A stretch of DNA of 64,000 nt. It comes from an uncultured Bacilli bacterium. GTDB lineage: Bacteria; Bacillota_I; Bacilli_A; RF39; UBA660. The notes beneath the pieces were generated by a model. That model ran no database searches, was not told where the DNA came from, and was given only the letters and a program-made list of their open reading frames with translations. The stretch lies in assembly GCA_944363865.1 (NCBI GenBank), contig CALVVN010000024.1, positions 9,400 to 73,399 of the forward strand, written 5' to 3'. Positions 9,623 through 63,935 of the stretch are shown piece by piece. The position numbers and the translations under genes are program-made. Position 1 is the first letter of the stretch. Each line of letters begins with the position of its first letter.

Positions 9623-9628
9623 ACAAGC

Positions 9629-9840
9629 AAATTGAGGAAGAGGACGAGTAATATTATGAACTGTTTTTAGAAAGTTGGAACGATGAAAGCCAATAACAAG
9701 TATAATATGAATAAAAACCTCGGAAATGACTGACAAGTCCGGATAATTCCGTTATAAAAAAGAGATATCAATTAATGATAAAAAAGGTGGTACCGCGATA
9801 TGACGCCCTTTTGTCATTAATTTTTTTATTATAGAAGGAG
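9629..9840 (+). promoter_or_regulatory. T-box riboswitch leader upstream of lysS
   Basis: conserved T-box sequence AAGGTGGTACCGCG at 9784-9797 followed by GACGCCCTTTTGTCAT hairpin and T-run just before the lysS RBS; ~210-nt leader downstream of consensus promoter. Confidence 0.65.
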
Positions 9841-11395: not shown

Positions 11396-12802
11396 ATGAA
11401 AAAGAATTGTTTGCTAAAAGTTATAGGAATTGTGGCATTGATTATAATGATTCTAAGTTGGATAATACCAGCAAGCTATTATAGCGGATCAACTGTAATA
11501 GATTTAGGTACTATGCCTGTAGGTATATTTGATATTCTAAGTTATCCATTTTTATCATTCCAATATTTCATACAAACAGTAATATTTTTATTCACAGTTG
11601 GAGCATTGTATGGAGTGTTAGAAAAAACTGGAAAATATAGAAATATACTTGAAAAAATAGTTAAACGTTTAAAAGGAAAGGAACAAATATTTATTGTCAT
11701 TTTGACATTAGTCATAACAGCATTATCAAGCATATTAGGGCTAAACTTAATGCTATTTGTGTTTATACCAGCACTAGTTGCAATAATATTACTAATGGGA
11801 TATGACAAAATAAGTGCATTCCTTATTACAATTGTACCAATGTTTGTAGGTATAATCGGTAGTACATATAGTATATACATTAATGGGTATATAAACCAAG
11901 TAGTTGGAATTACAGACTTTGGTAACGATATGTTATCAAAAATAGCTTTATTAGTTATTAGTTATGTAGTATATATTATGTTTACATTAGCATATACAAA
12001 AAAAGTTAAAAAAGCAAAAATAGAAGAAGAGACAGATAATATTGCTTTTATTGGCGAAAAGAAACAAGTTAAAAAAGCATCTTGGCCAATAATAACAGTA
12101 TTTGCTATTATATTTGTATTATTAATACTAGCACCTACACCATGGACAGATGTATTTAATGTAGAATTTTTTACAAATCTACATGAATCAATTCAAAATT
12201 GGGCTATAGGAGAATACACAATTGGAGCGAATTTACTAGGTTACATAGAAGCATTCGGATCATGGACATATCTTGAAATATCTATGATAGTATTTACTGC
12301 TGCATTAATAATAGGATTTACATATAAACAAAAACTTAGTGAAATAATTGATAACATGTTATATGGATTAGGAAAAATGATTAAACCTGCTCTACTTGTA
12401 ACATTTAGTATGGTTATAATAATTATGACAGCTTATCACCCATTCTATATAACTATAACGGACTATATAATAAATCTTTCAGATAACTTCAATATATTTT
12501 TAACATCACTGATAACAATCATAGGTTCAGTTATGAATGGAGAGATGATATATTTAGCACAGTCATCAATACCACTAATAGCAGGAACATTCCCTGCTAC
12601 AGAAGCCATTAATTCTTTAGCAATAATAACACAATCTTTATATGGACTTACAATGTTCTTTGCACCTACTAGCACAATGTTAGTATTAGGATTAAGTTAT
12701 TTAGATGTTCCATATGGAGAATGGTTAAAAAAGAGTTGGAAACTATTACTCGAATTATTCATAGTAATTGTAGCAATAATAATTATTTCAGTATTAGTTT
12801 AA
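11396..12802 (+). CDS. YfcC-family membrane transporter (putative basic amino-acid antiporter, DcuC-like fold)
   Basis: 468 aa polytopic membrane protein; N-terminus ...WIIPASYYSGSTVIDLGTMPVG resembles YfcC family IPAGeY motif; TGnTATAAT extended -10 in the 66-bp gap after lysS. Confidence 0.45.
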   Translation: MKKNCLLKVIGIVALIIMILSWIIPASYYSGSTVIDLGTMPVGIFDILSYPFLSFQYFIQTVIFLFTVGALYGVLEKTGKYRNILEKIVKRLKGKEQIFIVILTLVITALSSILGLNLMLFVFIPALVAIILLMGYDKISAFLITIVPMFVGIIGSTYSIYINGYINQVVGITDFGNDMLSKIALLVISYVVYIMFTLAYTKKVKKAKIEEETDNIAFIGEKKQVKKASWPIITVFAIIFVLLILAPTPWTDVFNVEFFTNLHESIQNWAIGEYTIGANLLGYIEAFGSWTYLEISMIVFTAALIIGFTYKQKLSEIIDNMLYGLGKMIKPALLVTFSMVIIIMTAYHPFYITITDYIINLSDNFNIFLTSLITIIGSVMNGEMIYLAQSSIPLIAGTFPATEAINSLAIITQSLYGLTMFFAPTSTMLVLGLSYLDVPYGEWLKKSWKLLLELFIVIVAIIIISVLV

Positions 12803-12832
12803 AACAAGATTTACAATAATCTTGTTTTTTTT
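12803..12832 (+). terminator. Rho-independent terminator
   Basis: AACAAGATT-(6 nt)-AATCTTGTT hairpin + 8 T. Confidence 0.7.
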
Positions 12833-12899
12833 ATGCCTTAATAGTTGAATAAAAATTAATAAAATATATCAATATAACATATATAATAAAGGAGGCATA

Positions 12900-15026
12900 A
12901 TGAACTATTCTGAAGAAATAATTAATATTTTAAAAAACAGCGAAAAAGAAGCAACCAAAAATAACAGTGAGTTTATAACTACAGAACATATATTGCTTTC
13001 AATACTTAAATCAAACACTCAGTCCCAAACGATATTTAACAAACATAACATAAATTATGAAGAAGCAAAAAAACTAATTAATAATACCAACAGCAAAAAC
13101 AAAAGTAAATATTACACATTAACTACAAAAAAAATTATTGAAAACTCATTTATAAATACAAAAGATAATAAAACGGAAATTAATTCTATTAATCTTTCTT
13201 TATCAATACTTGATGATAAAAGTTGCAAAGCAAATGCAATAATAGCAAAATTAACAGACAGCTATAATAGCTTATATAAGGATTTTACAAAAGAACTGAT
13301 AAATAATGAAAATAGTATACTTGAAGAATTAGGCACAAATATAAATGAATTAGTTATAAATAATGAGACAGATAAAGTAATAGGAAGAGAAGAAGAAATA
13401 AACAGAATTATAGAAATACTAGCCAGAAAAAACAAAAACAATCCAATATTAATAGGAGAAGCTGGAGTTGGCAAAACTGCTATTGTAGAAGAATTAGCAA
13501 GAAAAATAGTAGATAAAAACGTTCCAGAAACATTTTTAAACAAAAAAATAATATCAATTAATTTAGCCTCAATAATATCCGGAACTAAATATCGTGGTGA
13601 GTTTGAAGAAAAAATGAGTAAAATAATAAAAGAATTAGAAAAAAACGATCAAATAATCTTATTTATTGATGAAATACATACTATAGTTGGTGCAGGCGGT
13701 GCAGAAGGCGCCATAGATGCGTCAAATATATTAAAGCCAATGCTAGCTAGAGGAAAAGCAAAATGTATAGGAGCAACAACAATTAACGAATACAAAAAAA
13801 CAATAGAAAAAGACAAAGCATTAGATAGAAGATTTCAAAAAGTTTATATAAATGAACCAAACGAAGCAGAACTACTAACAATATTAAAAAAAATAAAACA
13901 TGAGTATGAAAAATATCATAAAGTTAAAATACCTGAACAAATAATAAAGCAAATACCTTATTTAAGCAAAAAATACATACACGGAAGAAGTGAACCTGAT
14001 AAAAGCATAGATATACTTGATGAAGTATGCGCTAAGACAGCTTTGTTTTTTAATACTGAAGAAAAACAAAAAATTAATAATAAAATAAATAAATTAAATA
14101 AACAAAAAAACACTTTACTAAGAAAACAAAAATATGCAGATGCTATTACAATAAGCGAAGAAATTAATAATCTCACCGAAAACTTAACTAAACTTAATAA
14201 TCACGAAAAAAAGATTGTCACAGAAGAAATACTAAAATCTGTTTTAGAAAAAAAATCAAACTCAATTATACACGAGTTAAATAATAATTTAGATTACATT
14301 AATAACATCAAACAAAAAATAATGAGCAAAATTATTGGGCAAGACACACAAATATCAGAAATAATTACCATATATAAAAATCATCAAACAAAAAATAATG
14401 ACTTGCCAACACCAATATTAATAGAAGGAAAAACAGGAACAGGTAAAACAGAATTAATTAAACTATTATCAAAATACACGAAAACCAATTTAATAAAAAT
14501 AAATATGAACGAATATAAAAACGAAACAAGTTTAAATAGATTGTTAGGCAGTCCGCAAGGATATGTTGGATACAATGATACTAATACAACATTTGAAGAA
14601 TTAAAATTAAATTCAAACTCAATTATACTTGTTGAAAATATAAATAATGCTCATTATTCAATAAAAGATTTGTTTAAAAGTATAATAGAAGATGGAGAAA
14701 TAAAAAATACAAAAAATGAAAGAATTAATTTTAAAAATAACATAATTATATTTACAAATACAACTGATGACGAAAATACTAAAATAGGTTTTATAAAAAA
14801 ACAAAATGAAGAAGTAGAAAACTATTTAAAAATTGACAACTATATAAAAATGAACAATTTAACAAAAAATGATATATATAAAATAATCAACTTATATTCT
14901 AAAAACTTAGAAAAAACCGACATAGAAAAAATCATTACTGAAAGTAACTATTTACTACAAGGCGCAAATAAAATAAAACAATTAACTGATAAATATAAAA
15001 ATAAAGTATTAACAAAAATTTCATAA
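12900..15026 (+). CDS. clpC: ClpC-like AAA+ chaperone ATPase (Clp_N repeats, D1, UVR-like linker, D2 with degenerate Walker B/sensor-2, IGF-type ClpP loop)
   Basis: 708 aa; Clp_N TTEHILLSIL; D1 Walker A GEAGVGKTAIVEELA, Walker B ILFIDEIHTIVGAG, ALDRRFQKVYINEP; D2 Walker A GKTGTGKTELIKLLS, LLGSPQGYVGY; but D2 Walker B reads IILVENINNAH instead of hhhhDEIEKAH and sensor-2 GAR is GAN; KIGF loop present. Confidence 0.7.
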   Translation: MNYSEEIINILKNSEKEATKNNSEFITTEHILLSILKSNTQSQTIFNKHNINYEEAKKLINNTNSKNKSKYYTLTTKKIIENSFINTKDNKTEINSINLSLSILDDKSCKANAIIAKLTDSYNSLYKDFTKELINNENSILEELGTNINELVINNETDKVIGREEEINRIIEILARKNKNNPILIGEAGVGKTAIVEELARKIVDKNVPETFLNKKIISINLASIISGTKYRGEFEEKMSKIIKELEKNDQIILFIDEIHTIVGAGGAEGAIDASNILKPMLARGKAKCIGATTINEYKKTIEKDKALDRRFQKVYINEPNEAELLTILKKIKHEYEKYHKVKIPEQIIKQIPYLSKKYIHGRSEPDKSIDILDEVCAKTALFFNTEEKQKINNKINKLNKQKNTLLRKQKYADAITISEEINNLTENLTKLNNHEKKIVTEEILKSVLEKKSNSIIHELNNNLDYINNIKQKIMSKIIGQDTQISEIITIYKNHQTKNNDLPTPILIEGKTGTGKTELIKLLSKYTKTNLIKINMNEYKNETSLNRLLGSPQGYVGYNDTNTTFEELKLNSNSIILVENINNAHYSIKDLFKSIIEDGEIKNTKNERINFKNNIIIFTNTTDDENTKIGFIKKQNEEVENYLKIDNYIKMNNLTKNDIYKIINLYSKNLEKTDIEKIITESNYLLQGANKIKQLTDKYKNKVLTKIS

Positions 15027-20335: not shown

Positions 20336-21232
20336 TTAATCAATTTCCACCTTAATATCTAATATTTTCAAGATTCTTTCTAAATCTTTTTCACTATCAA
20401 ATGGTATAGTAATATTTTTATTATTAACCTTTACCATAGTTCCAATTTTATCACGCAATATGTCTTGAACATACTGATAATTAGGGTTAACTTTTGCCTT
20501 TGGTTTAGCTATAGGATTTTTACGAACATAATTCTCATTAACAATATTCTCTAGTTCTCTCACAGATAAGTTTTCATCTACAACTCTTTGCGTTAAGTCA
20601 AAAACTTTCTCTACATCACTAAGTTTACTTAGTATTCTTGCATGTCCCATAGATAATTTATCATCTAAAATAAGTTTCTGAATTTTAGAAGGTAACTGCA
20701 ATAACCCTAAAATATTAGTCAAGTAACTTCTGCTTTTTCCAATCTTCTTGCTTAATTCATCATGAGTTAAATGCAAAGTTTCTAACATCTTTTTATATGC
20801 TTCTGCTTCTTCAATTATATTTAAATCTTCACGTTGTATATTTTCAAGTATAGCAATTTCTAACATTTCTTCATCAGTAAAATCTCTTATTATTGCAGGT
20901 ATTTTTTCAAGACCGGCTTTTCTAGCAGCAAGTGTTCTTCTTTCTCCAGCAACAATTTCATAACCTTTTATGCTACGCTTAACTATAATAGGTTCAATAA
21001 CGCCATACTCTTTTATTGAAGTAGCTAGTTCTTCTAATTTTTCATCATCAAAAACTTTTCTAGGTTGATATGGATTGCTACGAAGTTCACTCAAATTTAA
21101 CAACTTAACATCCTCTTTATTACTACTTTCAATTATATTTCTTTCCAATTCATCAATATTAAAAGCTTCATTGCTGAATAGTTGTTCTAGACCCTTCCCT
21201 AATGCTCTCCTCTTCTCTTGCATTTCTTTCAA
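20336..21232 (-). CDS. parB: chromosome partitioning protein ParB/Spo0J
   Basis: 298 aa; ALGKGLEQLF, LRSNPYQPRK..., GERRTLAARKAGLEKIPAII ParB box/HTH; start may be an internal ATG (e.g. 21223) because 65 nt overlap parA. Confidence 0.9.
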   Translation of the reverse strand: MKEMQEKRRALGKGLEQLFSNEAFNIDELERNIIESSNKEDVKLLNLSELRSNPYQPRKVFDDEKLEELATSIKEYGVIEPIIVKRSIKGYEIVAGERRTLAARKAGLEKIPAIIRDFTDEEMLEIAILENIQREDLNIIEEAEAYKKMLETLHLTHDELSKKIGKSRSYLTNILGLLQLPSKIQKLILDDKLSMGHARILSKLSDVEKVFDLTQRVVDENLSVRELENIVNENYVRKNPIAKPKAKVNPNYQYVQDILRDKIGTMVKVNNKNITIPFDSEKDLERILKILDIKVEID

Positions 21233-21998
21233 TCACTTCCTTTGCTAAATTAATATACGCCAAAGCCCCTCTACATTTTGGATCATATTCAATTATAGGT
21301 TTTCCATGACTTGGTGCTTCTACTAATCTTACCAATCTAGGAATTATAGTATTAAATACTTTTTCCTTAAAAAACTTTCTTACATCTTCTACTACTTCTA
21401 AACCAACTAACGTTCTCCCATCTAACATAGTTAAAAGTACACCTTCAATATCCAATTTAGGGTTAACCTTAGTTTGAGTTAAAATTATAGTGTTTAATAA
21501 CTGAGTAACACCTTCTAATGCAAAATATTCACACTGAACAGGTATCAAAACACTATCTGATGCTGCTAAAGCATTAGTCGTTAAAATCCCTAAAGCCGGT
21601 GGACAATCAATAATTATAAAATCATATCTATCTTTAATTTTATTAATTTGATTCTTTAACTGATCCCCAAGTATAAAATTCTCTTCTTTCATACTAGTTT
21701 GCATTAATTCAATTTCAACACCACTCAAAAAAATCATAGAAGGAATTACACTAAGATTTTTAAACCTAGTTTTAACAATTGCTTCTGATATTTCGCATCT
21801 GTTAGTTATTACATCATAAATACTAAGTTTAATATTACCTTTATTCATCCCTAAGCCAGTTGTACTATTACTTTGAGGATCCAAATCTATTAATAAAACC
21901 TTCTTACTCAAGTGGCCTAAAGCACTACTTAGGTTAATACTAGTAGTCGTTTTGCCAACTCCGCCTTTTTGATTTACCAGTGATATAACTTTAGCCAT
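21168..21998 (-). CDS. parA: chromosome partitioning ATPase ParA/Soj
   Basis: 276 aa; deviant Walker A NQKGGVGKTTTSINL; ~20-aa C-terminal extension relative to typical Soj. Confidence 0.9.
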   Translation of the reverse strand: MAKVISLVNQKGGVGKTTTSINLSSALGHLSKKVLLIDLDPQSNSTTGLGMNKGNIKLSIYDVITNRCEISEAIVKTRFKNLSVIPSMIFLSGVEIELMQTSMKEENFILGDQLKNQINKIKDRYDFIIIDCPPALGILTTNALAASDSVLIPVQCEYFALEGVTQLLNTIILTQTKVNPKLDIEGVLLTMLDGRTLVGLEVVEDVRKFFKEKVFNTIIPRLVRLVEAPSHGKPIIEYDPKCRGALAYINLAKEVIERNAREEESIREGSRTTIQQ

Positions 21999-34969: not shown

Positions 34970-37063
34970 TTAATATTCATCAATGTCATTGATTTTCTCT
35001 AGACTCTTGTGATTTTTTACAATTTTTACTATTCCAACATTATTATTAAAAGCTATAGAAGCTATATTTCCTTGAATTTGAACTACAATACCATTGCCAT
35101 ATTTTAAATGTTTAACCTTATCTCCAACTTTTAATTCATCATTTCTACTATCCTCATACATGTCGCTAATAGTATTTATTTCATTAAAAGATTCATTGCT
35201 TTCAATCAAATCAGAATTAATCTCAGATATAAAACGGCTTGGCATATTTATATCTGTACGTCCAAAAAGCGTACGTCTTTTGCAATTCAACAAATATAAC
35301 CTTTCTCTAGCCCTTGTTATTCCAACATAACAAAGTCTACGTTCTTCTTCAAGTTCATCTTCATCATCTATAGACCTAAAATGTGGAAAAACATTTTCTT
35401 CTAAACCGGTGATAAATACTATATCAAACTCTAAACCTTTAGCAGAATGTAACGTCATAACGTTTACACAGTCATCGATATCTTTATACTGGCCAAAATC
35501 ACTTACTAGTGCTATATTTTCTAGAAATTCTTCTAATGAGTATATACCACGTTCTTCAAATGCTAAAGCTATGCTTTTAAATTCCTCCAAGTTTTCAAGG
35601 CGAATTTCACTATCTATGCCGCCTGTTAGTTCTAATTCTTTTTTCATTCCAGATAAACCTAATATTTTATCTATAAGTTCCGATAAATTAACGTTCTTAG
35701 ATTCATCGATCAATTTAAGTATTAGTTCCTTAAATTCCATCGGTGTTCCACTTTTGATAGCATCAAACATAGAGGTCCCCATCGCTTTTGCATCTTCCCT
35801 AATTTTTTCTATAGTTTTAATTCCAATTTTACGTTTTGGAACATTAATTATTCTTTCTAAACTTTCATTATCTTTAGTATTATAAATTAAATTTAAATAA
35901 GCAATTAAATCCTTTATCTCTTTTCTATTATAAAAATAATAACTTCCAACCACTTTATACGGAATATTTTCTTTTAGCAAAGCTTCTTCTATAACACGGC
36001 TTTGCGCATTCGTGCGATATAAAATACCAAAATCAGAATATTTTTTTCCATTTAACAACAATTTTTTAATTTCAGTCACTACTTCTTTAGCTTCATCAAT
36101 TTCATTACCGCAACGTATATATTTTATTTTTTCGCCAAGATCCTTAGTACTAATTAGATTTTTTTCTTTTCTTTTAACGTTATGTTTTACAACACTATTA
36201 GCAGCATCTAATATATTTTTAGTACTTCTATAATTTTCTTCTAAGATTATAACTCTAGAATTATCATAATCTTTCTCAAAATTCAAAATATTTTGGTAAT
36301 TAGCGCCCCTCCAACCATAAATACTTTGGTCAATATCGCCGACAACAAAAATATTCTTATATTTACTGGCTAATAACTTACATAATTCATATTGAACACC
36401 ATTAGTGTCCTGATATTCATCAACCAATATATACTTATAATGTTCCTGATATTTTTCTAATATATGTTTATTATTTTTAAATAATTGAACTGGCAAAACT
36501 AATAAATCATCAAAATCAACGGAGTTATTTGACTTTAAAATTGAAATATACCTATTAAAAACTTTAATAACAGTTTCATCTATATAACCTTTCATAAATC
36601 TACTATATTCTTCTGGAGTTAAACCTTCATTTTTAGCAAAACTAATTTTATTAATAACATATTTTATGGGTATAACTTTAGTATCAACATTAAATTCCTT
36701 TAATATTTTTCTTATTATGCTAGTCATATCTTCTCTATCAATTATAGAAACATTCTTATCAAAACCTAGTTCCTTATAATTTTCCCTAATTATTTTTAAA
36801 CCAAAAGAATGAAAAGTTCCAATAAAAATGTCACTAGCAACATTATATATTTTATTTTCAATTCTTTCTTTCATCTCATTAGCTGCTTTGTTTGTAAAAG
36901 TTATTGCTAATATATTATTTGGAGAAGCCCCTTCTTCAATCAATTTAACAATTCTTTCGGTTAAAACTCTAGTTTTTCCACTTCCGGCACCAGCCAAAAC
37001 TAAACAAGGTCCGTCTTTAAAATTAACGGCTTCTTTTTGCATTTCATTTAACAACTTCATCAC
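34970..37063 (-). CDS. pcrA: ATP-dependent DNA helicase PcrA (UvrD family)
   Basis: 697 aa; LVLAGAGSGKTRVLTERI Walker A, VDEYQDTN motif II, full 1A/1B/2A/2B architecture. Confidence 0.9.
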   Translation of the reverse strand: MMKLLNEMQKEAVNFKDGPCLVLAGAGSGKTRVLTERIVKLIEEGASPNNILAITFTNKAANEMKERIENKIYNVASDIFIGTFHSFGLKIIRENYKELGFDKNVSIIDREDMTSIIRKILKEFNVDTKVIPIKYVINKISFAKNEGLTPEEYSRFMKGYIDETVIKVFNRYISILKSNNSVDFDDLLVLPVQLFKNNKHILEKYQEHYKYILVDEYQDTNGVQYELCKLLASKYKNIFVVGDIDQSIYGWRGANYQNILNFEKDYDNSRVIILEENYRSTKNILDAANSVVKHNVKRKEKNLISTKDLGEKIKYIRCGNEIDEAKEVVTEIKKLLLNGKKYSDFGILYRTNAQSRVIEEALLKENIPYKVVGSYYFYNRKEIKDLIAYLNLIYNTKDNESLERIINVPKRKIGIKTIEKIREDAKAMGTSMFDAIKSGTPMEFKELILKLIDESKNVNLSELIDKILGLSGMKKELELTGGIDSEIRLENLEEFKSIALAFEERGIYSLEEFLENIALVSDFGQYKDIDDCVNVMTLHSAKGLEFDIVFITGLEENVFPHFRSIDDEDELEEERRLCYVGITRARERLYLLNCKRRTLFGRTDINMPSRFISEINSDLIESNESFNEINTISDMYEDSRNDELKVGDKVKHLKYGNGIVVQIQGNIASIAFNNNVGIVKIVKNHKSLEKINDIDEY

Positions 37064-47859: not shown

Positions 47860-48704
47860 TGTTTTTTCTCCTCAAACATATTATACAACAGATTTTTACT
47901 AATATTATATTTTTTTGAAATATATTTCATAGCGTTTTTCTTTTCCATTCCATAACTAATTAATTCGTTCATTTCAGAAAACGCTAGTGTTTCATTTTTA
48001 TTAATTTCATTATTGTCAACAATTATAACAAACTCTCCTTTAGGTTCTTTAAAAAGCTTAATAGCATCTGCAACATTACCTCTATAAACTTCTTCATATA
48101 CTTTTGATATTTCCCGGGAAATAGAAATAATTTTATTTCCCAAGATATTATTAATATTTTGTAAAGTTTTTATCAACCTATGAGGAGATTCATATAAAAC
48201 AAATGTAAAGTTGATATTTTTTAACACTTCAAGTTCTCTTTTACATTCTTCATTTTTATTACTTAAAAATCCATAAAAAATAAATCTATCTGATTTAATA
48301 TTTGACATATTCAACGCCGGTAAAAAAGCACATGCTCCTGGCAACGCCACTACCGAATAGCCTGATTCTATTACTTTGTTAACTACAACATAACCAGGAT
48401 CACTTATCAAAGGCGTTCCACGATCAGTAACTAAAGCAACACTTTTTCCTTCTTGCAAATTGTGGATAACTTGTGGATAAATAGACATTTCATTAAACTT
48501 ATGACAAGAAATTAATTTAGTTTTAATTTTATAATGATTAAATAATATTTTAGTTACTCTAGTATCTTCTGAATAAACTACTGATACTCCTTTCAATATT
48601 TCTATAGCTCTTAATGTAATATCCAACATATTTCCAATAGGAGTTGGTACAATATATAATTTACTTTTATCATCATAGCTTTTCTGTATCATCGTTACCT
48701 CCAA
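47856..48704 (-). CDS. rsmI: 16S rRNA (cytidine1402-2'-O)-methyltransferase RsmI
   Basis: 282 aa; LYIVPTPIGNMLDITLRA, SEDTR motifs of tetrapyrrole-methylase fold RsmI. Confidence 0.85.
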   Translation of the reverse strand: MEVTMIQKSYDDKSKLYIVPTPIGNMLDITLRAIEILKGVSVVYSEDTRVTKILFNHYKIKTKLISCHKFNEMSIYPQVIHNLQEGKSVALVTDRGTPLISDPGYVVVNKVIESGYSVVALPGACAFLPALNMSNIKSDRFIFYGFLSNKNEECKRELEVLKNINFTFVLYESPHRLIKTLQNINNILGNKIISISREISKVYEEVYRGNVADAIKLFKEPKGEFVIIVDNNEINKNETLAFSEMNELISYGMEKKNAMKYISKKYNISKNLLYNMFEEKKQ

Positions 48705-54248: not shown

Positions 54249-54259
54249 ACCTTACTCCT

Positions 54260-54338
54260 AAAAAAAAGTGCACATACATAGTAAGTGTTAAGGCTGCTAT
54301 TTTCCAATCCTGACCTGATTCCACGCTATGTATTGCAC
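54260..54338 (-). ncRNA. ffs: small (4.5S-type) signal recognition particle RNA
   Basis: minus-strand transcript GUGCAAUACAUAGCGUGGAAUCAGGUCAGGAUUGGAAAAUAGCAGCCUUAACACUUACUAUGUAUGUGCAC-U8: 13-bp terminal helix, domain IV motifs CAGGUCAGG ... GGAA tetraloop ... AGCAGCC (cf. E. coli CAGGUCAGGUCCGGAAGGAAGCAGCC); TTGAAT-17-TATAAT promoter at 54345-54373. Confidence 0.75.
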
Positions 54339-54373
54339 GATTAAATTATAATATATTAACGTTAAAAATTCAA

Positions 54374-54389
54374 TGTTCCACGTGGAACA
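54374..54389. promoter_or_regulatory. parS site 1 (ParB/Spo0J binding), core TGTTCCACGTGGAACA within 30-bp perfect palindrome 54367-54396
   Basis: perfect 16-bp palindrome matching Firmicute parS consensus tGTTnCACGTGaAACa; flanks AATTCAA/TTGAATT also symmetric. Confidence 0.75.
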
Positions 54390-54418
54390 TTGAATTTCCT
54401 AATATATTTACTAGCTGA

Positions 54419-54434
54419 TGTTCCACGTGGAACA
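54419..54434. promoter_or_regulatory. parS site 2, core TGTTCCACGTGGAACA within 18-bp palindrome
   Basis: identical 16-bp core; right flank TTTATTCTGAATTATTATC repeats the gyrA 3' end. Confidence 0.75.
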
Positions 54435-54721
54435 TTTATTCTGAATTATTATCTATTAAAACATGTAATATATACATATTCGTTACCTTATAATATTTAA
54501 AACGTAGTTATTTTATTGCCTATTACTTGTTTTTTTAAATTACTATGATTATTCATAGCAATATTTTTTATATTTTTACTAACTAATAATGTTAGTAAGT
54601 TTTTTACCTACAACTTTAAGTAAAACTACTATCAACTAAGCATATATTTTTTAATAGCAAAAATCCTTGTTTATATTAATTATTTTACGTTTTTAATTTG
54701 TTTATACAAAAAAAATATCAA

Positions 54722-54737
54722 TGTTCCACGTGGAACA
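54722..54737. promoter_or_regulatory. parS site 3, core within 30-bp perfect palindrome 54715-54744
   Basis: ATATCAA-TGTTCCACGTGGAACA-TTGATAT. Confidence 0.75.
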
Positions 54738-54785
54738 TTGATATAAAATCCTATTCAATCATATATTTTTGTATTAAAACAATAA

Positions 54786-54801
54786 TGTTCCACGTGGAAC
54801 A
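54786..54801. promoter_or_regulatory. parS site 4, core within 32-bp perfect palindrome 54778-54809
   Basis: AACAATAA-TGTTCCACGTGGAACA-TTATTGTT. Confidence 0.75.
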
Positions 54802-54880
54802 TTATTGTTTATATCTTTAATTTAATTTTTATGATACATATTATGTATTGTTTTACTTAAGTCATATTTTTTTTCTTTAA

Positions 54881-54896
54881 TTTTCCACGTGGAACA
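54881..54896. promoter_or_regulatory. parS site 5 (one mismatch: TTTTCCACGTGGAACA), 1 bp from gyrA stop codon
   Basis: 15/16 match to the other four copies; followed by gyrA stop region. Confidence 0.6.
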
Positions 54897-54897
54897 T

Positions 54898-57321
54898 TTA
54901 TTCTGAATTATTATCAATCAATGCGATTGATGTAACATAATTGTTATCTTTTAGATTAATTAATTTTACTCCTTGCGTAACTCTTCCCATTAAAGAAATA
55001 TTATCAATATTTAATCTAATAACTATTCCATTCTTAGTAATTATCATTAAATCACATGAAGCATTAATTAATTTAAATCCAATTATATTTCCATTTTTTT
55101 CAGTAATTTTTAATGTTTTTACACCCTTACTGCCTCTTTTAGTTTCCCTATAATTATCTATAGTAGTTTTTTTGCCATATCCATTCTTAGTAACTACTAA
55201 AGCTAATGAATTCTCACTTGTTACTTCCAAACCAATGCAAGTATCATTAACTAAGTTTATACCTCTAACACCAGAAGCACTTCTTCCCATTAATCTTATT
55301 TCTGACTCGTTAAACTTCACCATTCTTCCATTAGAAGAACACATTAATACCTTATCACCAATTTTTGATTTTCTAACAGCAATTAGTTCATCATTTTCTC
55401 TTAAATTAATAGCTAATTTACCATTTTTTCTAATGTTATCAAATTCTTTCAAAGAAGTTTTTTTCACTATCCCATTTTTCGTTGCAAAAATTAAATGTTG
55501 ATAACTTGTTTGCCTTTCAAGGACTAAAATAGTGTTGATAACTTCTTCCTTTTCCAAAGGTAACAAATTAACAATTGGTAAACCTTTAGATATTCTGCTA
55601 AACTCAGGTATCTCATAACCTTTTAATCTATAGACTTTACCTTTATTTGAGAAGAAGAATAGATAATCATGTGTATTTAAATTGATTATTTGTTCTACAA
55701 AATCTTCTTCGTTTGTAGTCATTCCTTTAATACCAACGCCGCCTCTATTTTGAGCTTTATAAGTATCGCTATTTACCCTCTTAATATAATTTTTATTAGT
55801 AATAGTTAAAACAATGTTTTCTTCAGGAATAAGAGATTCATCTTCAATATACTCAATCGCGCTCATATCAATCATAGTTCTCCTACTATCTGAATATTTG
55901 TTCTTTATTTCAGTCAATTCATCTTTAATTATTTCTTCAACAAGTTTATCACTTGCCAAAATAGCTCGTAATCTATCAATCTCTTTTAATAATTCTGCTA
56001 ATTCATTTTCAATTTTATCTCTTTCTAAACCAGTTAAACGACGCAACTTCATTTCAAGTATACTATCAGCTTGAATTTCACTTAATTCAAATCTAGATAT
56101 CAACTTTTCTTTAGCAATTTCATCACTTTTAGCAGTTTTAATAATTTGAATTACTTCATCAATATTATCCAATGCAATTTTTAAACCTTCTAAAATATGT
56201 ACCCTTTTTTCACATTTTTCTAGATCAAACCTAGTTCTTCTAATAATTACTTCCTTTTGATAATCTACATATTTTGAAATTATGTCTTTAAGACCTAAAG
56301 TTTTAGGAACTCCATTGTCTAACATCAAAAAGATAATTCCAAAATTACTTTGAAATGCTGTATGCTTATATAAATTATTCAATACTACTTGAGGATTTGC
56401 ATCCTTTTTTAAAGTTATAGTTATCTTAACACCATTTTTTAAATCTGTATGATAATCTGCAATGCCATCAATAGTTTTATTGTGTACAAGTTCTGCAACT
56501 TTATTTTTTAATTCTAGCGTATTAACTCCATAAGGAACTTCATCAATAACGATTAAATGTTTGCCATTTTTTTCTTCTATTGTCGCTTTACTTCTAAGAG
56601 TTATTGATCCTCTACCAGTTTCATAAGCTTGTTTAATTCCACTATTTCCTAAAATAATCGCACCTGTTGGAAAATCCGGACCTTTTATATGTTCCATTAA
56701 ACCTAAAACGTCAATATCTGGATTATCTATATATGCAATACAACCATCAATTACTTCTCCCAAATTATGAGGCGGAATATTTGTTGCCATTCCAACCGCA
56801 ATACCCATAGTTCCATTAACAAGAATATTTGGAAATCTAGAAGGCAATATTTTTGGCTCTTTTTCAGATTCATCAAAGTTTGGTTCAAAATCGACTGTAT
56901 TTTTCCCAATATCTCTTAATAATTCCAACGAAATCTTAGAAAGTCGTGATTCTGTGTAACGCATCGCTGCTGCACCATAACCTTCAATATTTCCGAAATT
57001 ACCATGACCATCAACGAGCATATATCTATAATTAAAATCTTGAGCCATTCTAACCATTGCTTCATAAATAGATGAATCGCCATGAGGATCATATTTTCCC
57101 ATTACATCTCCTACTATCCTAGCAGATTTCTTATGCGGTTTGTCTGGAGTATAACCAGATTCATACATTGGATAAAGTATTCTTCTATGAACAGGTTTTA
57201 ATCCGTCTCTTAAATCAGGCAAGGCACGAGAAACAATAACACTCATAGAATATTCTAAAAAAGATGTTTCAATTTCATTAACAATATTATTTTCTTCTAA
57301 TCTATCTCTACTATGATCCAT
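54898..57321 (-). CDS. gyrA: DNA gyrase subunit A
   Basis: 807 aa; active-site region AAMRYTE (Tyr), QRDR-like [18 protein letters not shown]-terminal beta-pinwheel repeats. Confidence 0.95.
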
Positions 57322-60877: not shown

Positions 60878-60977
60878 CCTATCACCCCCGTTCTTGAAAT
60901 TAATACTTCCATTATAACATATAAGTTTGTCGATAAATGTCATTTTTTGTCAAAAAAAAAGAAAATTTAAATTTTCT

Positions 60978-62099
60978 TTAATATGTCTTAATCGGTAAAA
61001 TAAGTTGTGTTAAATCTCCATCTTCAGACTCTTTTATTATTATTGGTTTAATATCTCCATTTAACATAATTATAACTTCTTCACTAGTAAAACTTTTTAA
61101 TGCATCCATCATAAACTTTGCACTGAAAGATATTTTTATATTCGGACCAGTTAAAGTTTTGACAGGCATTACTTCTTCAACTTTACCTATTTCAGGACTT
61201 GAACTAGTAATTATAATATTATTATCTTTTAATTCTAACTGAACTATATTTTTATCTTTAACTTGTGTTAATAATGCTGCCCTATCAACTACATCATAAA
61301 AATCATTTAAATTTAATTGTAATTTAATTTGAAATTCAGTTGGAATCAATGTATCAGTATTAGGATAAGTTCCATTTAATAAACTTGATTGAAATAAAAT
61401 ATTTTCATATTTAAATAAGATTTTATTATTAAAACAGTATAATACTAATTCACTTTCCTCATTTTCTATTATTTTAATTAATTCAATTATATTTTTTGCA
61501 GGAATCACTATATTAATATTATTATCCACATTATTATCAAGTTTTATTATTTTTTTTGATAGTCTATAAGAATCAGTAGCTACAGTTTCTAATAAATTAC
61601 CTATTATTTTAAAGTTAATACCTGTTAATAAAGGTCTACTTTCTTGTGTAGATGTTGAAAAAACTGTTTGATTCACTATTTCTTTAAACTTACCTGTTAA
61701 TAATTTAATAGGTTTATCATTTTCAACAATATCAATTTTTGGAAAATCATTTATATCAAAGCAATTTAAATTATATTTAGCATTAGGTGTAGAAATTATA
61801 GTTTTTCCACCTTCTATCTCCTCTATTTCAACCTCTTCACAAGGCAACTTACGAATAATATCTAAAACATATCTACCTATTATAACAACACTACCTTCAC
61901 TATCTACATTTATAATATCACTTTTATCTATAAAAGTTTTAATAGTTAAATCATTATCTGTAGCTGTTAAAGATAAACCCTTATCTGTTAAATTAAATAG
62001 TATTCCATTTAATACAGGTATAATATTTCTATTTGACAAAGCCTTACTAACATTATTTAATCCTTCTAATAAAATATTTTTTTTAATTTTAAATTTCAT
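60978..62099 (-). CDS. dnaN: DNA polymerase III beta sliding clamp
   Basis: 373 aa; MKFKIKKNILLEGLNNVSKALSNRNIIPVLNGILF typical DnaN N-terminus; three-domain length. Confidence 0.95.
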   Translation of the reverse strand: MKFKIKKNILLEGLNNVSKALSNRNIIPVLNGILFNLTDKGLSLTATDNDLTIKTFIDKSDIINVDSEGSVVIIGRYVLDIIRKLPCEEVEIEEIEGGKTIISTPNAKYNLNCFDINDFPKIDIVENDKPIKLLTGKFKEIVNQTVFSTSTQESRPLLTGINFKIIGNLLETVATDSYRLSKKIIKLDNNVDNNINIVIPAKNIIELIKIIENEESELVLYCFNNKILFKYENILFQSSLLNGTYPNTDTLIPTEFQIKLQLNLNDFYDVVDRAALLTQVKDKNIVQLELKDNNIIITSSSPEIGKVEEVMPVKTLTGPNIKISFSAKFMMDALKSFTSEEVIIMLNGDIKPIIIKESEDGDLTQLILPIKTY

Positions 62100-63699: not shown

Positions 63700-63935
63700 A
63701 ACATAGTTATCAACAACTTATTAACATAATTTTTTCCTATTTTATAGCATTTTTTTTAAATTATCAACATTATTAACAATTTTTATATTAACATGTTAAT
63801 AACACGTTAAATACTTATCAACATAATTGTTTATAAACAAATTGTATTACATAAATTAAAGGAAAAAAGCGTAAAGTTATTAACAATTTATTAACGTTAA
63901 TAATAATTAAACAAAAATAAATTGTTAATAAGTTC
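63700..63935. promoter_or_regulatory. oriC segment 1 (upstream of dnaA) DnaA-box cluster
   Basis: perfect TTATCAACA at 63707, 63761, 63815 (same orientation, exactly 54 bp apart); one-mismatch boxes TTATTAACA at 63770 and 63877 and inverted TGTTAATAA at 63795 and 63924; AGGAGG RBS at window end suggests rpmH follows. Confidence 0.8.

Follow-up and report, generated by a model that had tools for sequence, protein, structure and literature searches.

The window analysed here, a stretch of 64,000 nucleotides, corresponds to the origin (oriC) region of an uncultured Bacilli genome with a GC content of 26%, with DnaA boxes upstream of dnaA (63707-63823) and GC skew of one sign throughout. Within 530 bp of it lie four perfect matches and one single-mismatch match to the 16-bp inverted repeat TGTTNCACGTGNAACA, the consensus of the chromosomal parS/ParB (Spo0J) system of Firmicutes, against 0.06 expected by chance; outside this array, the 64 kb contain no parS cluster. 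The upstream boundary of the array is gyrA (54898-57321, minus strand; Pfam DNA_topoisoIV and DNA_gyraseA_C), which is transcribed towards the array, and its downstream boundary is ffs, encoding the small SRP RNA (54252-54347, minus strand; RF00169, 55.4 bits, gathering score 40); every site lies downstream of gyrA, on its strand. A sigma-70-like promoter precedes ffs (54345-54373, minus strand; -35 TTGAAT at 54373-54368, -10 TATAAT). Searches of the gyrA-ffs gap yielded no credible small open reading frame and, among known RNA families, only the SRP RNA, matches to miRNA models falling far under their thresholds. The presumed binder of the array is a ParB/Spo0J-family protein (20336-21232, minus strand; TIGR00180 ParB/RepB/Spo0J, 196 bits, cut-off 58), which is ordinary in length (about 280-300 aa) and domain structure and is 42% identical to B. 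subtilis Spo0J. A ParA/Soj-family ATPase is encoded immediately upstream of parB (21168-21998, minus strand). The array is situated 7.4 kb from the dnaA gene, about 9 kb from dnaA/oriC and 33 kb from parAB. Among 80 related loci, 343 sites were identified, almost all directly downstream of gyrA, and in these relatives the core is kept while the surrounding DNA diverges, with co-varying half-sites; symmetric core variants dominate the clade, namely TGTTTCACGTGAAACA (186 sites) and TGTTCCACGTGGAACA (49 sites). Judged from these sequence features, the sites are authentic parS sites, presumably bound by ParB, and together they make up the centromere array near the origin of this AT-rich Bacilli chromosome.

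parS is usually treated as a 16-bp site, and three of the five sites in the window extend well past this length (coordinates are unstranded for all five). Site 1 (54366-54397) is a 32-bp perfect palindrome, AAATTCAATGTTCCAC/GTGGAACATTGAATTT, with a perfect core TGTTCCACGTGGAACA and arms AAATTCAA and TTGAATTT; on the minus strand it is followed by a run of five Ts, three inside the palindrome and two outside, and its promoter-proximal arm contains the ffs -35 element, an arrangement conserved in the sister species L003. Site 2 (54418-54435) has a perfect core within a palindrome of only 18 bp; its symmetry beyond the core is limited to ATG..CAT, common to nearly all clade sites, and the DNA flanking it derives from a duplication of the gyrA 3' end. 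Site 3 (54715-54744) is a 30-bp perfect palindrome, ATATCAATG..CATTGATAT, with a T7 run immediately 3' of the hairpin on the gyrA-sense strand (54708-54714, minus strand; T8 if the last stem base is included). Site 4 (54777-54810) is a 34-bp perfect palindrome, AAACAATAATG..CATTATTGTTT, followed by a T4 run on the minus strand. Site 5 (54881-54896), which abuts the gyrA stop codon, carries the degenerate core TTTTCCACGTGGAACA on the plus strand with one mismatch, and a search for a donor of its clustered changes found none. In six conspecific contigs, two sites occupy this position, 5a (18 bp) and 5b, a 34-bp perfect palindrome GAACTTCAATG..CATTGAAGTTC. The first-pass annotation had described every core as lying within a longer palindrome, with lengths of 30, 18, 30 and 32 bp. 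The extended perfect palindromes are real, with re-measured lengths of 32, 18, 30 and 34 bp, but "each" was an overstatement given the plain site 2 and the degenerate site 5, the latter falling just beyond the range covered by that annotation. The 30-, 32- and 34-bp palindromes have zero spacer and are embedded in intergenic DNA of 21% GC. They recur in independent assemblies of the same species (L081, L082, L206, L207, L208 and L336), and the same kind of site is present in the relative L010, a MAG assembled from HiFi reads; with at least seven independent assemblies and the HiFi MAG in agreement, an assembly artefact is ruled out. Sites 3 and 4 are identical in L003, an identity that is not significant because local divergence is only ~5%.

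The extra symmetry is specific to each copy. Pairing each flank with its own partner gives arms of 16, 15 and 17 for sites 1, 3 and 4, whereas cross-pairing of left and right flanks within the window gives at most 12, and in the clade-wide cross-site control arms of at least 15 occur in 1.0% of pairings and arms of at least 16 in 0.2%. The chance figure of about 4^-7 per copy proposed at first pass was too optimistic, as the per-step chance of complementarity in the window's intergenic DNA is 0.33 and the innermost flank follows a consensus common to the clade, AATG/CATT, frequently continued by C or T; chance is nevertheless ruled out, by composition, by the cross-site controls and by the extension hazard of generic palindromes. 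The accompanying argument that the extensions cannot derive from duplication of a single site holds, since the flanks differ. Elsewhere in the 64 kb, the arms of perfect palindromes never exceed 11. Beyond about 20-22 bp, the extensions have no sequence in common, either between sites or between species. A shared mobile or REP-like element is likewise ruled out, the outer arms being unique to each copy.

Extended sites are widespread in the clade and also occur in unrelated samples. Among 226 distinct perfect-core sites from 80 related species, arms of at least 13 are found in 32% (4.9% in the cross-site control) and arms of at least 15 in 16% (1% in the control). When only sites with an arm of at least 10 are considered, the share with arms of at least 14 is 37% in the clade, 14.6% in metagenomes and 12% in IMG/VR (controls 1.8%, 1.3% and 0.7%, respectively), which amounts to a tenfold or greater excess in the unrelated samples and a 2.5-3-fold higher frequency in this clade than elsewhere. 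Perfect palindromes in the unrelated samples reach 50 bp, and GC-rich contigs are among those with palindromes of 40-50 bp. Extension of every parS is ruled out, as 58% of IMG/VR perfect cores end at arm 8; those IMG/VR sites that reach an arm of at least 10 nevertheless show the excess. In 1.39 Mb of the relatives' loci, parS palindromes extend with a per-step frequency of 0.71-0.85, whereas generic palindromes in the same DNA extend at chance (0.30-0.37 per step) and never exceed an arm of 12, this generic control being AT-only and weak and therefore not representing hairpins of comparable stability. The only other long perfect palindromes in these loci, up to 38 bp, are the Noc-binding sites (NBS), where arms of at least 15 occur in 8.7% of sites against 1.05% of controls. 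Their site-specific excess is weaker than that of parS, and a common A-rich consensus, AAATTATTTCCCGGGAAATAATTT, accounts for much or most of the extension at NBS; the single NBS in the window (48109-48122) is not extended.

The arms are perfect and end abruptly, complementarity past the first mismatch being at control level. At positions 11-14, all four positions are paired in 57 sites (5.1 expected) and three of four in 33 (24.5 expected); sites with one mismatch are thus fewer than perfect ones, the reverse of what simple birth and decay predicts. Searches for decaying, interrupted palindromes found none above control, and wobble enrichment at the arm boundary was not found either. The orthologue comparison suggested in the first-pass annotation bears out its expectation that relatives keep flank symmetry while flank sequence drifts. 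Six mirrored-change cases were recovered, a number limited by the few closely related genome pairs available. Three come from the pair L040/L045: a C:G to T:A change on both arms (L040 12933 versus L045 12926) in a palindrome with a T-run on neither strand, a concerted change on both arms (13328 versus 13318), and a G:C to A:T change on both arms (12810 versus 12809). In L043 12503, two adjacent pairs are flipped by A/T transversions relative to L058 12515, and a symmetric 1-nt indel separates the same site from L052 3088. Lastly, window site 1 and its paralogue 5b differ by an A:T to C:G transversion pair, one of only three differing positions in all between their duplicated modules (~75 bp). 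Variants that break the symmetry exist within the species, namely an A to G change in site 3 of L082 and a 1-nt deletion in site 1 of L211, so any correction is not instantaneous.

The direction of change is most legible at site 1, which provides the best polarity case among the relatives, none of which yields a template-switch event with a clean outgroup. Its right flank, the ffs promoter, is common to L003, L081 and L082, while only the left flank is new, its sequence being the right flank in reverse complement; the comparison with L003 is confounded by array rearrangement. A scan of metagenomes with the ffs-promoter 31-mer for within-species variation gave no matches. In L001 and L004, the end of the gyrA coding sequence, stop codon included, serves as the left arm and is mirrored in the right one, a pattern confounded by rearrangement or possible selection. 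Core symmetry may also matter: complementary flanks accompany 6.8% of asymmetric-core sites and 31.8% of symmetric-core sites, a contrast that is suggestive but confounded by lineage, as it falls to 11% versus 27% (p = 0.1) in genomes with both kinds of core.

Taken together, the best explanation, in which we place roughly even confidence, is expansion and homogenization of inverted repeats by template switching, with a subset of the products co-opted as terminators. The extra symmetry would then lie outside ParB recognition and be a by-product of the core. A perfect palindrome of 16-20 bp, held constant by selection for ParB binding, would become single-stranded at replication and fold into a hairpin; the nascent strand could snap back on this hairpin and use one arm as the template for the opposite flank (quasipalindrome correction, a form of intrastrand template switching), so that the far flank becomes an exact reverse complement of the near one. 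Because repeated events of this kind would lengthen the arms and keep them perfect, the arms could drift and remain symmetric, as in concerted evolution, while unequal recombination between cores would shuffle flanks and reset sites to a bare core. Such perfecting and expansion of inverted repeats by template switching, including sites of dimeric factors, has already been published (PMC5941160, PMC8794818 and PMC13100816), and PMC7202029 supplies a further precedent. At parS, the mechanism is read from the pattern and not from reconstructed events, and the concerted changes and the absence of decayed arms would equally follow from purifying selection on a hairpin or cruciform. The 2.5-3-fold higher frequency in this clade also counts against it. 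Of the first-pass suggestions, a hairpin-templated mechanism is therefore retained for the growth and homogenization of arms around existing sites, although not for the birth of sites.

A transcriptional layer is superimposed on this pattern. In the clade, a sense-strand T-run of at least five is found next to 27% of extended sites but only 2% of plain ones, the background frequency being 5.6% of positions (extended versus plain, Fisher p = 1.3e-7), whereas T-runs on the antisense strand (11%) are not enriched over a background of about 10%. In the window, T4-T8 runs occur on the sense strand at all three extended sites and at neither plain one. Computed folds give -17 to -19 kcal/mol for extended hairpins and -8 for the bare core, a stem gain of about 10 kcal/mol, with -19.4 kcal/mol for the minus-strand RNA hairpin of site 1 and only -8.1 kcal/mol for site 2. 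The site 3 hairpin (-16.3 kcal/mol) is the first terminator-like hairpin downstream of gyrA in the window, and its 13-bp stem with T8 forms an intrinsic-terminator-like element. Site 1 similarly combines a 14-16 bp stem with T5, site 4 with T4 is borderline, and sites 2 and 5 as well as the conspecific 5b lack a U-tract. Clade-wide, parS supplies the first terminator-like hairpin past gyrA in 10 loci, whereas in 35 that hairpin is conventional. About a third of extended sites thus look like strand-specific intrinsic terminators, and the strength of the strand-specific association implies selection on at least that third. The earlier proposal of selection for extended dyad symmetry survives to this extent only. 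Some extended hairpins may accordingly have been put to secondary use as Rho-independent terminators on the gyrA-sense strand, probably site 3 (13-bp stem plus U8) and site 1 (U5, immediately upstream of the ffs -35 and overlapping it), and perhaps site 4 (U4), where they would stop gyrBA read-through and insulate the array and the ffs promoter.

The same observations could be taken further, with RNA-level selection as the main cause: point mutations would have lengthened the stem into terminators, insulators or 3'-end-stabilizing hairpins, starting from the parS palindrome as the only GC-containing seed in very AT-rich intergenic DNA and serving gyrBA read-through and transcripts inside the array. 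This is a serious competitor, although on balance an unlikely one. Besides the T-run statistics and the stem gain, it is favored by the position of parS hairpins as the first terminator-like element in 10 of 62 loci, by the conventional terminator that usually stands alongside where the first site is plain, by the U.G pair that the L082 variant retains in sense RNA, and by classic cases of a GC stem plus T-run in other taxa (L286, L287 and L228). However, a sense-strand T-run of at least four is missing at about 60% of extended sites, including this species' 5b and whole arrays in L010, L011, L006 and L055, and a single gene-free gap has no need of several tandem terminators. The arms are, moreover, always perfect Watson-Crick in exact register and show no excess of stems running past a wobble or mismatch, unlike the conventional terminators of the same genomes, which have 5-12 bp stems with wobbles and mismatches. 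Transversion-pair and symmetric-indel changes occur without a wobble intermediate, a compensated change is found in a palindrome that is not a terminator (the L040 12933/L045 12926 case), and perfect palindromes of 40-50 bp far exceed what termination requires.

A broader possibility, which appears improbable, is that selection favors extended site-specific perfect dyad symmetry as a structural feature of the sites where ParB-family proteins load (parS and NBS), in bacteria at large. If it were, hairpin or cruciform extrusion could gate ParB/Noc clamp loading or load SMC, the centromere could be insulated from transcription and supercoiling arising beside the gyrase operon, and concerted evolution would maintain the structure, terminator use being one facet of it. 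A closely related version, in which dyad symmetry is selected at the DNA level for cruciform extrusion or hairpin folding with roles in ParB/Noc clamp loading, SMC recruitment, supercoil buffering near the gyrase genes or fork pausing, is judged no more likely. It draws on the confinement of long palindromes in 1.39 Mb to two kinds of ParB-family site, on the perfection and zero spacer that extrusion requires, and on concerted changes that maintain symmetry also at sites without T-runs. Palindromes of 26-40 bp with AT-rich flanks fall within the range competent for C-type extrusion, and the structural prerequisite for a cruciform is present here, since AT-rich DNA carries perfect inverted repeats of at least about 26 bp whose spacer is absent or minimal. 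Nevertheless, each hairpin stem of a cruciform would contain just one half-site, and extrusion would therefore be expected to abolish the site of the ParB dimer; plain sites make up half or more of these arrays; recombination resets extended sites to plain ones without loss of the array; the shared A-rich consensus supplies most of the NBS extension; the ParB is ordinary; and the literature searched offered no link between parS and cruciforms.

Duplication combined with inversion between palindromic cores is a very unlikely source of the palindromes. In such a model, direct duplicates of the form L-core-R ... L-core-R recombine and invert the DNA between them, which is possible because the core is its own reverse complement, and the products are two different perfect palindromes, L-core-rc(L) and rc(R)-core-R. 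The arrays clearly do evolve by duplication and unequal recombination at cores, as illustrated by the gyrA-tail flanks of sites 2 and 5, the 45-bp module shared by 5a/5b and 2/1, the chimeric sites of L004 and a 332-bp duplication in L010. Yet the extensions are short (3-12 nt past the core) and abrupt, while observed duplications span 45-330 bp; no neighboring pair of palindromes with an inverted interval was seen; the observed recombinants shorten palindromes instead of creating them (L004 12490); and single-pair compensated changes are left unexplained. Finally, an extended footprint, in which the clade's ParB reads a longer site of 26-34 bp as the first-pass annotation had entertained, is hardly credible: the AATG..CATT consensus and the preference for C or T at position 11 of most clade sites may extend recognition or shape read-out to about 20-22 bp, but the arms share no sequence past about 22 bp, a protein that reads sequence would not be expected to impose symmetry while leaving the sequence free, conservation is just as strong at plain sites, and the protein, at about 280-300 aa, is ordinary.

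Site-specific perfect extensions of parS have not been described in the literature searched, as the first-pass annotation had also supposed, although the general template-switch process is known. These extensions, evolving in concert, involve a third to half of the sites in a single clade of gut Bacilli; in unrelated samples the figure is about 12-15% of AATG-type sites. Should the mutational reading be true, parS arrays constitute a natural replicated experiment in wild genomes, with a palindromic core frozen by selection that drives the growth and homogenization of inverted repeats by template switching, useful for estimating rates and for understanding how long palindromes arise. The arrays also suggest a coupling of centromere sites with transcription termination or insulation, given that a parS hairpin replaces the gyrA terminator in some species and one such hairpin overlaps the ffs -35. 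On the practical side, perfect palindromes of 30-50 bp may interrupt assemblies of short reads near the origin, they make it harder to clone natural parS sites or employ them as tags, and they are relevant to parS probe design and the interpretation of ParB footprints.

Compared with known systems, the array shares with chromosomal parS/ParB (Spo0J) of Firmicutes the exact consensus core, the origin-proximal cluster, the nearby parAB and the co-varying half-sites, but differs in packing 5-11 sites tightly into a single gap without genes, immediately past the gyrA 3' end throughout the clade, with a third to half of the sites lying within site-specific perfect palindromes of 26-40 bp. NBS (ATTTCCCGGGAAAT), bound by the ParB paralogue Noc, show a site-specific symmetry excess as well, although their core is different, and the sites described here, with their CACGTG centre, do not fit ATTTCCCGGGAAAT and are not NBS. 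REP/BIME and other extragenic palindromic families are similarly intergenic, hairpin-forming and located at gene 3' ends; however, these and MITE-like elements share the whole palindrome among copies, whereas only the parS core is shared here. Large palindromes, such as those of sex chromosomes and the inverted repeats of plastids, are kept identical by gene conversion between their arms, and in them too the arms remain identical while the sequence drifts, albeit over kilobases and not tens of bases, and by recombination instead of the presumed replication template switching. Rho-independent terminators, including bidirectional ones of the A-tract/stem/U-tract type, resemble sites 3 and 1 in having a stem-loop and U-tract on the strand of the upstream gene, as do 27-38% of the clade's extended sites, and in 10 loci a parS hairpin stands where gyrA would otherwise have a conventional terminator. 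In contrast to the imperfect stems of conventional terminators in the same genomes, parS stems are 13-18 bp long, perfect and centred on a protein-binding site, and most extended sites have no U-tract. The closest likeness in process is to quasipalindrome correction and template-switch expansion (the Ripley model; PMC5941160, PMC8794818 and PMC7202029), with which the array has in common perfect, abruptly ending, homogenized and expanded arms as well as multi-base and indel changes mirrored on both arms, and to template-switch expansion at yeast transcription-factor sites (PMC13100816), where the seed is likewise an existing inverted repeat of a dimeric protein. What would set parS apart is the nature of the seed, a centromere site that ParB keeps from varying, so that expansion recurs independently at many copies and in many species.

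The window covers the replication-origin neighbourhood of a genome with 26% GC, and its GC skew keeps a single sign over all 64 kb. The minus-strand gene order is dnaA, dnaN, a ComK-like gene, recF, gyrB, and gyrA (54898-57321, minus strand), followed by a 550-bp gene-free gap, on the far side of which lie the small SRP RNA gene ffs (54252-54347, minus strand) and then a tadA-like deaminase gene, dnaX, ybaB, and recR. DnaA boxes were found upstream of dnaA, where three TTATCAACA variants with an exact 54-bp spacing (63707-63823) are probably part of oriC. The ComK-family protein (PF06338; 60425-60943, minus strand) is coded between dnaN and recF, an interval occupied in many Firmicutes by a small S4-like yaaA/remB gene. 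A ParA-family ATPase (21168-21998) and a ParB/Spo0J-family protein (20336-21232) are also encoded, and Rfam matches include a T-box leader (9626-9813, plus strand) and the Clostridioides difficile sRNA n00280 (35279-35377, minus strand; 68.6 bits, barely over the gathering score). Its closest kin are MAGs of uncultured gut Bacilli, some of which bear the names Candidatus Faecimonas, Coprovivens, or Onthousia.

In the gap, the parS core TGTTCCACGTGGAACA occurs four times without error and once with a single mismatch, against a chance expectation of 0.06. Numbered by coordinate, the perfect copies lie within maximal perfect palindromes of 32 bp (site 1, 54366-54397), 18 bp (site 2, 54418-54435), 30 bp (site 3, 54715-54744), and 34 bp (site 4, 54777-54810), while the degenerate site 5 (54881-54896) abuts the gyrA stop. 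The first-pass annotation had correctly located the four perfect sites and two of their lengths; it gave the other two as 2 bp too short and overlooked the fifth site. Its chance basis of 0.25 per step was also too low, complementarity per step here being 0.33. Because of this value, and because most sites have AATG..CATT in common, a cross-site control was adopted, in which the left flank of one site is paired with the right flank of another. Arms (paired bases on each side of the centre; the 16-bp core has an arm of 8) reach 16, 15, and 17 by self-pairing versus at most 12 across sites, which bears out the earlier claim that the flank symmetry is site-specific and beyond chance. No other palindrome in the 64-kb window has an arm above 11, and only one non-parS palindrome has an arm of at least 9, the 22-bp AT-only AAAGAAAATTTAAATTTTCTTT (60958-60979) between the ComK-like gene and dnaN.

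The arrays evolve by duplication and unequal recombination at cores. Sites 2 and 5 have one flank in common, which duplicates the last gyrA codons (..AATTCAGAATAA; 54402-54459 and 54864-54921). Identical palindromes are present in six further assemblies of this species, together with a sixth site, 5b, a 34-bp perfect palindrome; in conspecific contigs, an extra 45-bp module holds 5b together with its neighbour 5a, and in the window strain the two have collapsed and degraded into site 5. Compared with all other conspecific contigs, 54860-54897 shows a deletion and about six clustered changes within 25 nt, every one towards A, with the remaining array nearly identical; a donor sequence for these changes was sought and none was found. 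Variants with broken symmetry also occur within the species (L082, L211).

A gyrA-anchored scan yielded 80 species-level loci, almost all with a parS array of 2-11 sites directly 3' of gyrA. The 226 distinct perfect-core sites include 32% with arms of at least 13 and 16% with arms of at least 15, versus 4.9% and 1% in the same-locus cross-site control, and the distribution of arm lengths has two peaks (9-11 and 13-17). Across 1.39 Mb of the relatives' loci, parS arms extend at 0.71-0.85 per step as far as arm 14, versus chance values of 0.30-0.37 for generic palindromes, none of which has an arm above 12. In several relatives, a DnaA box and parS form a repeated composite downstream of gyrA: a DnaA-box-like motif (TTTTCCACA, TTATCCACA, or TAATCCACA) lies 4-6 nt left of many parS sites (L006, L007, L010, L011, L012, L015; arrays at about 12450-13900), and in L033 (5847-7476) it is inverted, about 17-20 nt to the right. 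Of the 80 MAG contigs, about 25 stop less than 1.5 kb past gyrA; several conspecific contigs begin inside a parS site, and other contig ends lie some 390 bp upstream of dnaA. The contigs concerned are L005, L008, L016, L019, L036-L038, L056, L061, L064, L066-L069, L078-L080, and others, as well as L081-L084, L207, L210, and L211. Short-read assemblies seem to break at parS sites, which are palindromic or repeated, and at DnaA-box repeats.

Pairing along the arms is perfect and stops abruptly, with complementarity past the first mismatch at control level. At positions 11-14, 57 sites pair fully (5.1 expected) and 33 pair at three of four (24.5 expected). Simple birth followed by neutral decay would predict more one-mismatch than perfect sites; since the reverse holds, the arms are either recent or actively maintained in perfect form. 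In these genomes, the stems of ordinary terminators measure 5-12 bp and include wobbles and mismatches. Wherever close relatives are available, both arms change in concert, so that symmetry is kept while sequence changes, as the proposed comparison of relatives was meant to reveal: L040/L045 differ by three compensated pairs, one in a palindrome without a T-run on either strand, L043/L058 by two adjacent pairs flipped via A/T transversions, and L043/L052 by a symmetric 1-nt indel. Site 1 and its paralogue 5b, in duplicated modules of about 75 bp, differ at three positions, one of which (A vs C) exactly matches the right-flank difference (GAATTT vs GAAGTT). On its right, site 1 is flanked by the ffs promoter, common to the window and its sister species (L003), where the left flank is unrelated and the arm reaches only 11; the end of the gyrA coding sequence forms the left arm in L001 and L004, and the right arm is its mirror. 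These flanks hint at polarity; both cases are confounded by rearrangement or possible selection.

The best supported account, which we hold with about even confidence, has two layers. The perfect core, constrained by ParB, would nucleate a hairpin in single-stranded DNA; template switching would then copy one flank from the other, generating perfect arms and preserving their perfection; and a subset of extended sites would secondarily be recruited as intrinsic terminators or insulators. The switching step is inferred from the pattern in the sequences rather than from reconstructed events. Flanks are extended at 6.8% of asymmetric-core versus 31.8% of symmetric-core sites (11% vs 27% in genomes with both kinds, p = 0.1), a contrast that pointed towards the hairpin nucleus and is confounded by lineage.

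As to the secondary terminator use, a gyrA-sense T-run of at least 5 follows 27% of extended sites versus 2% of plain sites (Fisher p = 1.3e-7) and 5.6% of random array positions, with no enrichment on the antisense strand of clade sites, and extended hairpins have predicted folds of -17 to -19 kcal/mol versus -8 for the bare core. In the window, sense-strand T-runs follow site 4 (T4), site 3 (T8), and site 1 (T5), and none follows sites 2 and 5. However, about 60% of extended clade sites, and 5b of this species, lack a T-run, so terminator use is not the general cause. The first terminator-like hairpin past gyrA is parS in 10 loci, conventional in 35, and undetected in 17; where the first site is plain, a conventional terminator is often immediately adjacent. 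In the ffs promoter (54345-54373, minus strand), the -35 (TTGAAT) falls within the arm of site 1, and in L001 and L004 the matching last site yields CATTGGCA, with TTGGCA in the equivalent position; interference between ParB binding and transcription of ffs is therefore possible. Among the rival explanations, selection at the RNA level as the sole cause is the most credible, albeit unlikely. A structural function of the DNA, such as a cruciform, appears improbable. Duplication with inversion at palindromic cores is more doubtful still, as recombination between cores in L004 has shuffled flanks and shortened palindromes. A longer ParB footprint is the least plausible explanation, with hardly any weight.

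Beyond the clade, perfect parS sites were sampled from IMG/VR and metagenome contigs, with rates taken among sites whose arm is at least 10. Arms of at least 14 occur in 37% of clade sites in gyrA arrays (cross-site control 1.8%), 14.6% in metagenome contigs (1.3%), and 12% in IMG/VR contigs (0.7%); the excess in the latter two samples means that arm extension at parS is general, at a frequency 2.5-3 times higher in this clade than elsewhere. Perfect parS-centred palindromes of 40-50 bp occur in unrelated metagenome contigs (L306, 874-923; L227, 2162-2201; L256, 3932-3971), two of them in 62-64% GC DNA, the 50-bp one in a 62% GC contig. Several non-clade parS sites are textbook terminators (GC stem and T-run).

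In the relatives' loci, the only other long perfect palindromes are Noc-binding sites (e.g. L066, 6356-6393; L059, 13858-13893). Their extension is mostly an A-rich consensus common to the copies, and a site-specific excess persists (arms of at least 15 in 8.7% vs 1.05%). Many species have a 24-bp form, AAATTATTTCCCGGGAAATAATTT, without any change, and some of its copies seem to fall within coding sequence. In the window, there is a single Noc-binding site (48109-48122), which is not extended, and one ParB-family gene was found, so Noc, if present, is encoded elsewhere.

The full-text literature searched contains no report for parS of palindromy that is extended or site-specific, of hairpins or cruciforms, or of embedding in terminators. 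The same template-switch process has published precedents in bacterial inverted repeats, in RNA stems, and at transcription-factor sites (PMC5941160, PMC8794818, PMC13100816, PMC7202029). As parS, the sites themselves are ordinary, and the mechanism proposed for them is already known; what is new here is the extended, site-specific palindromy of parS and its breadth.
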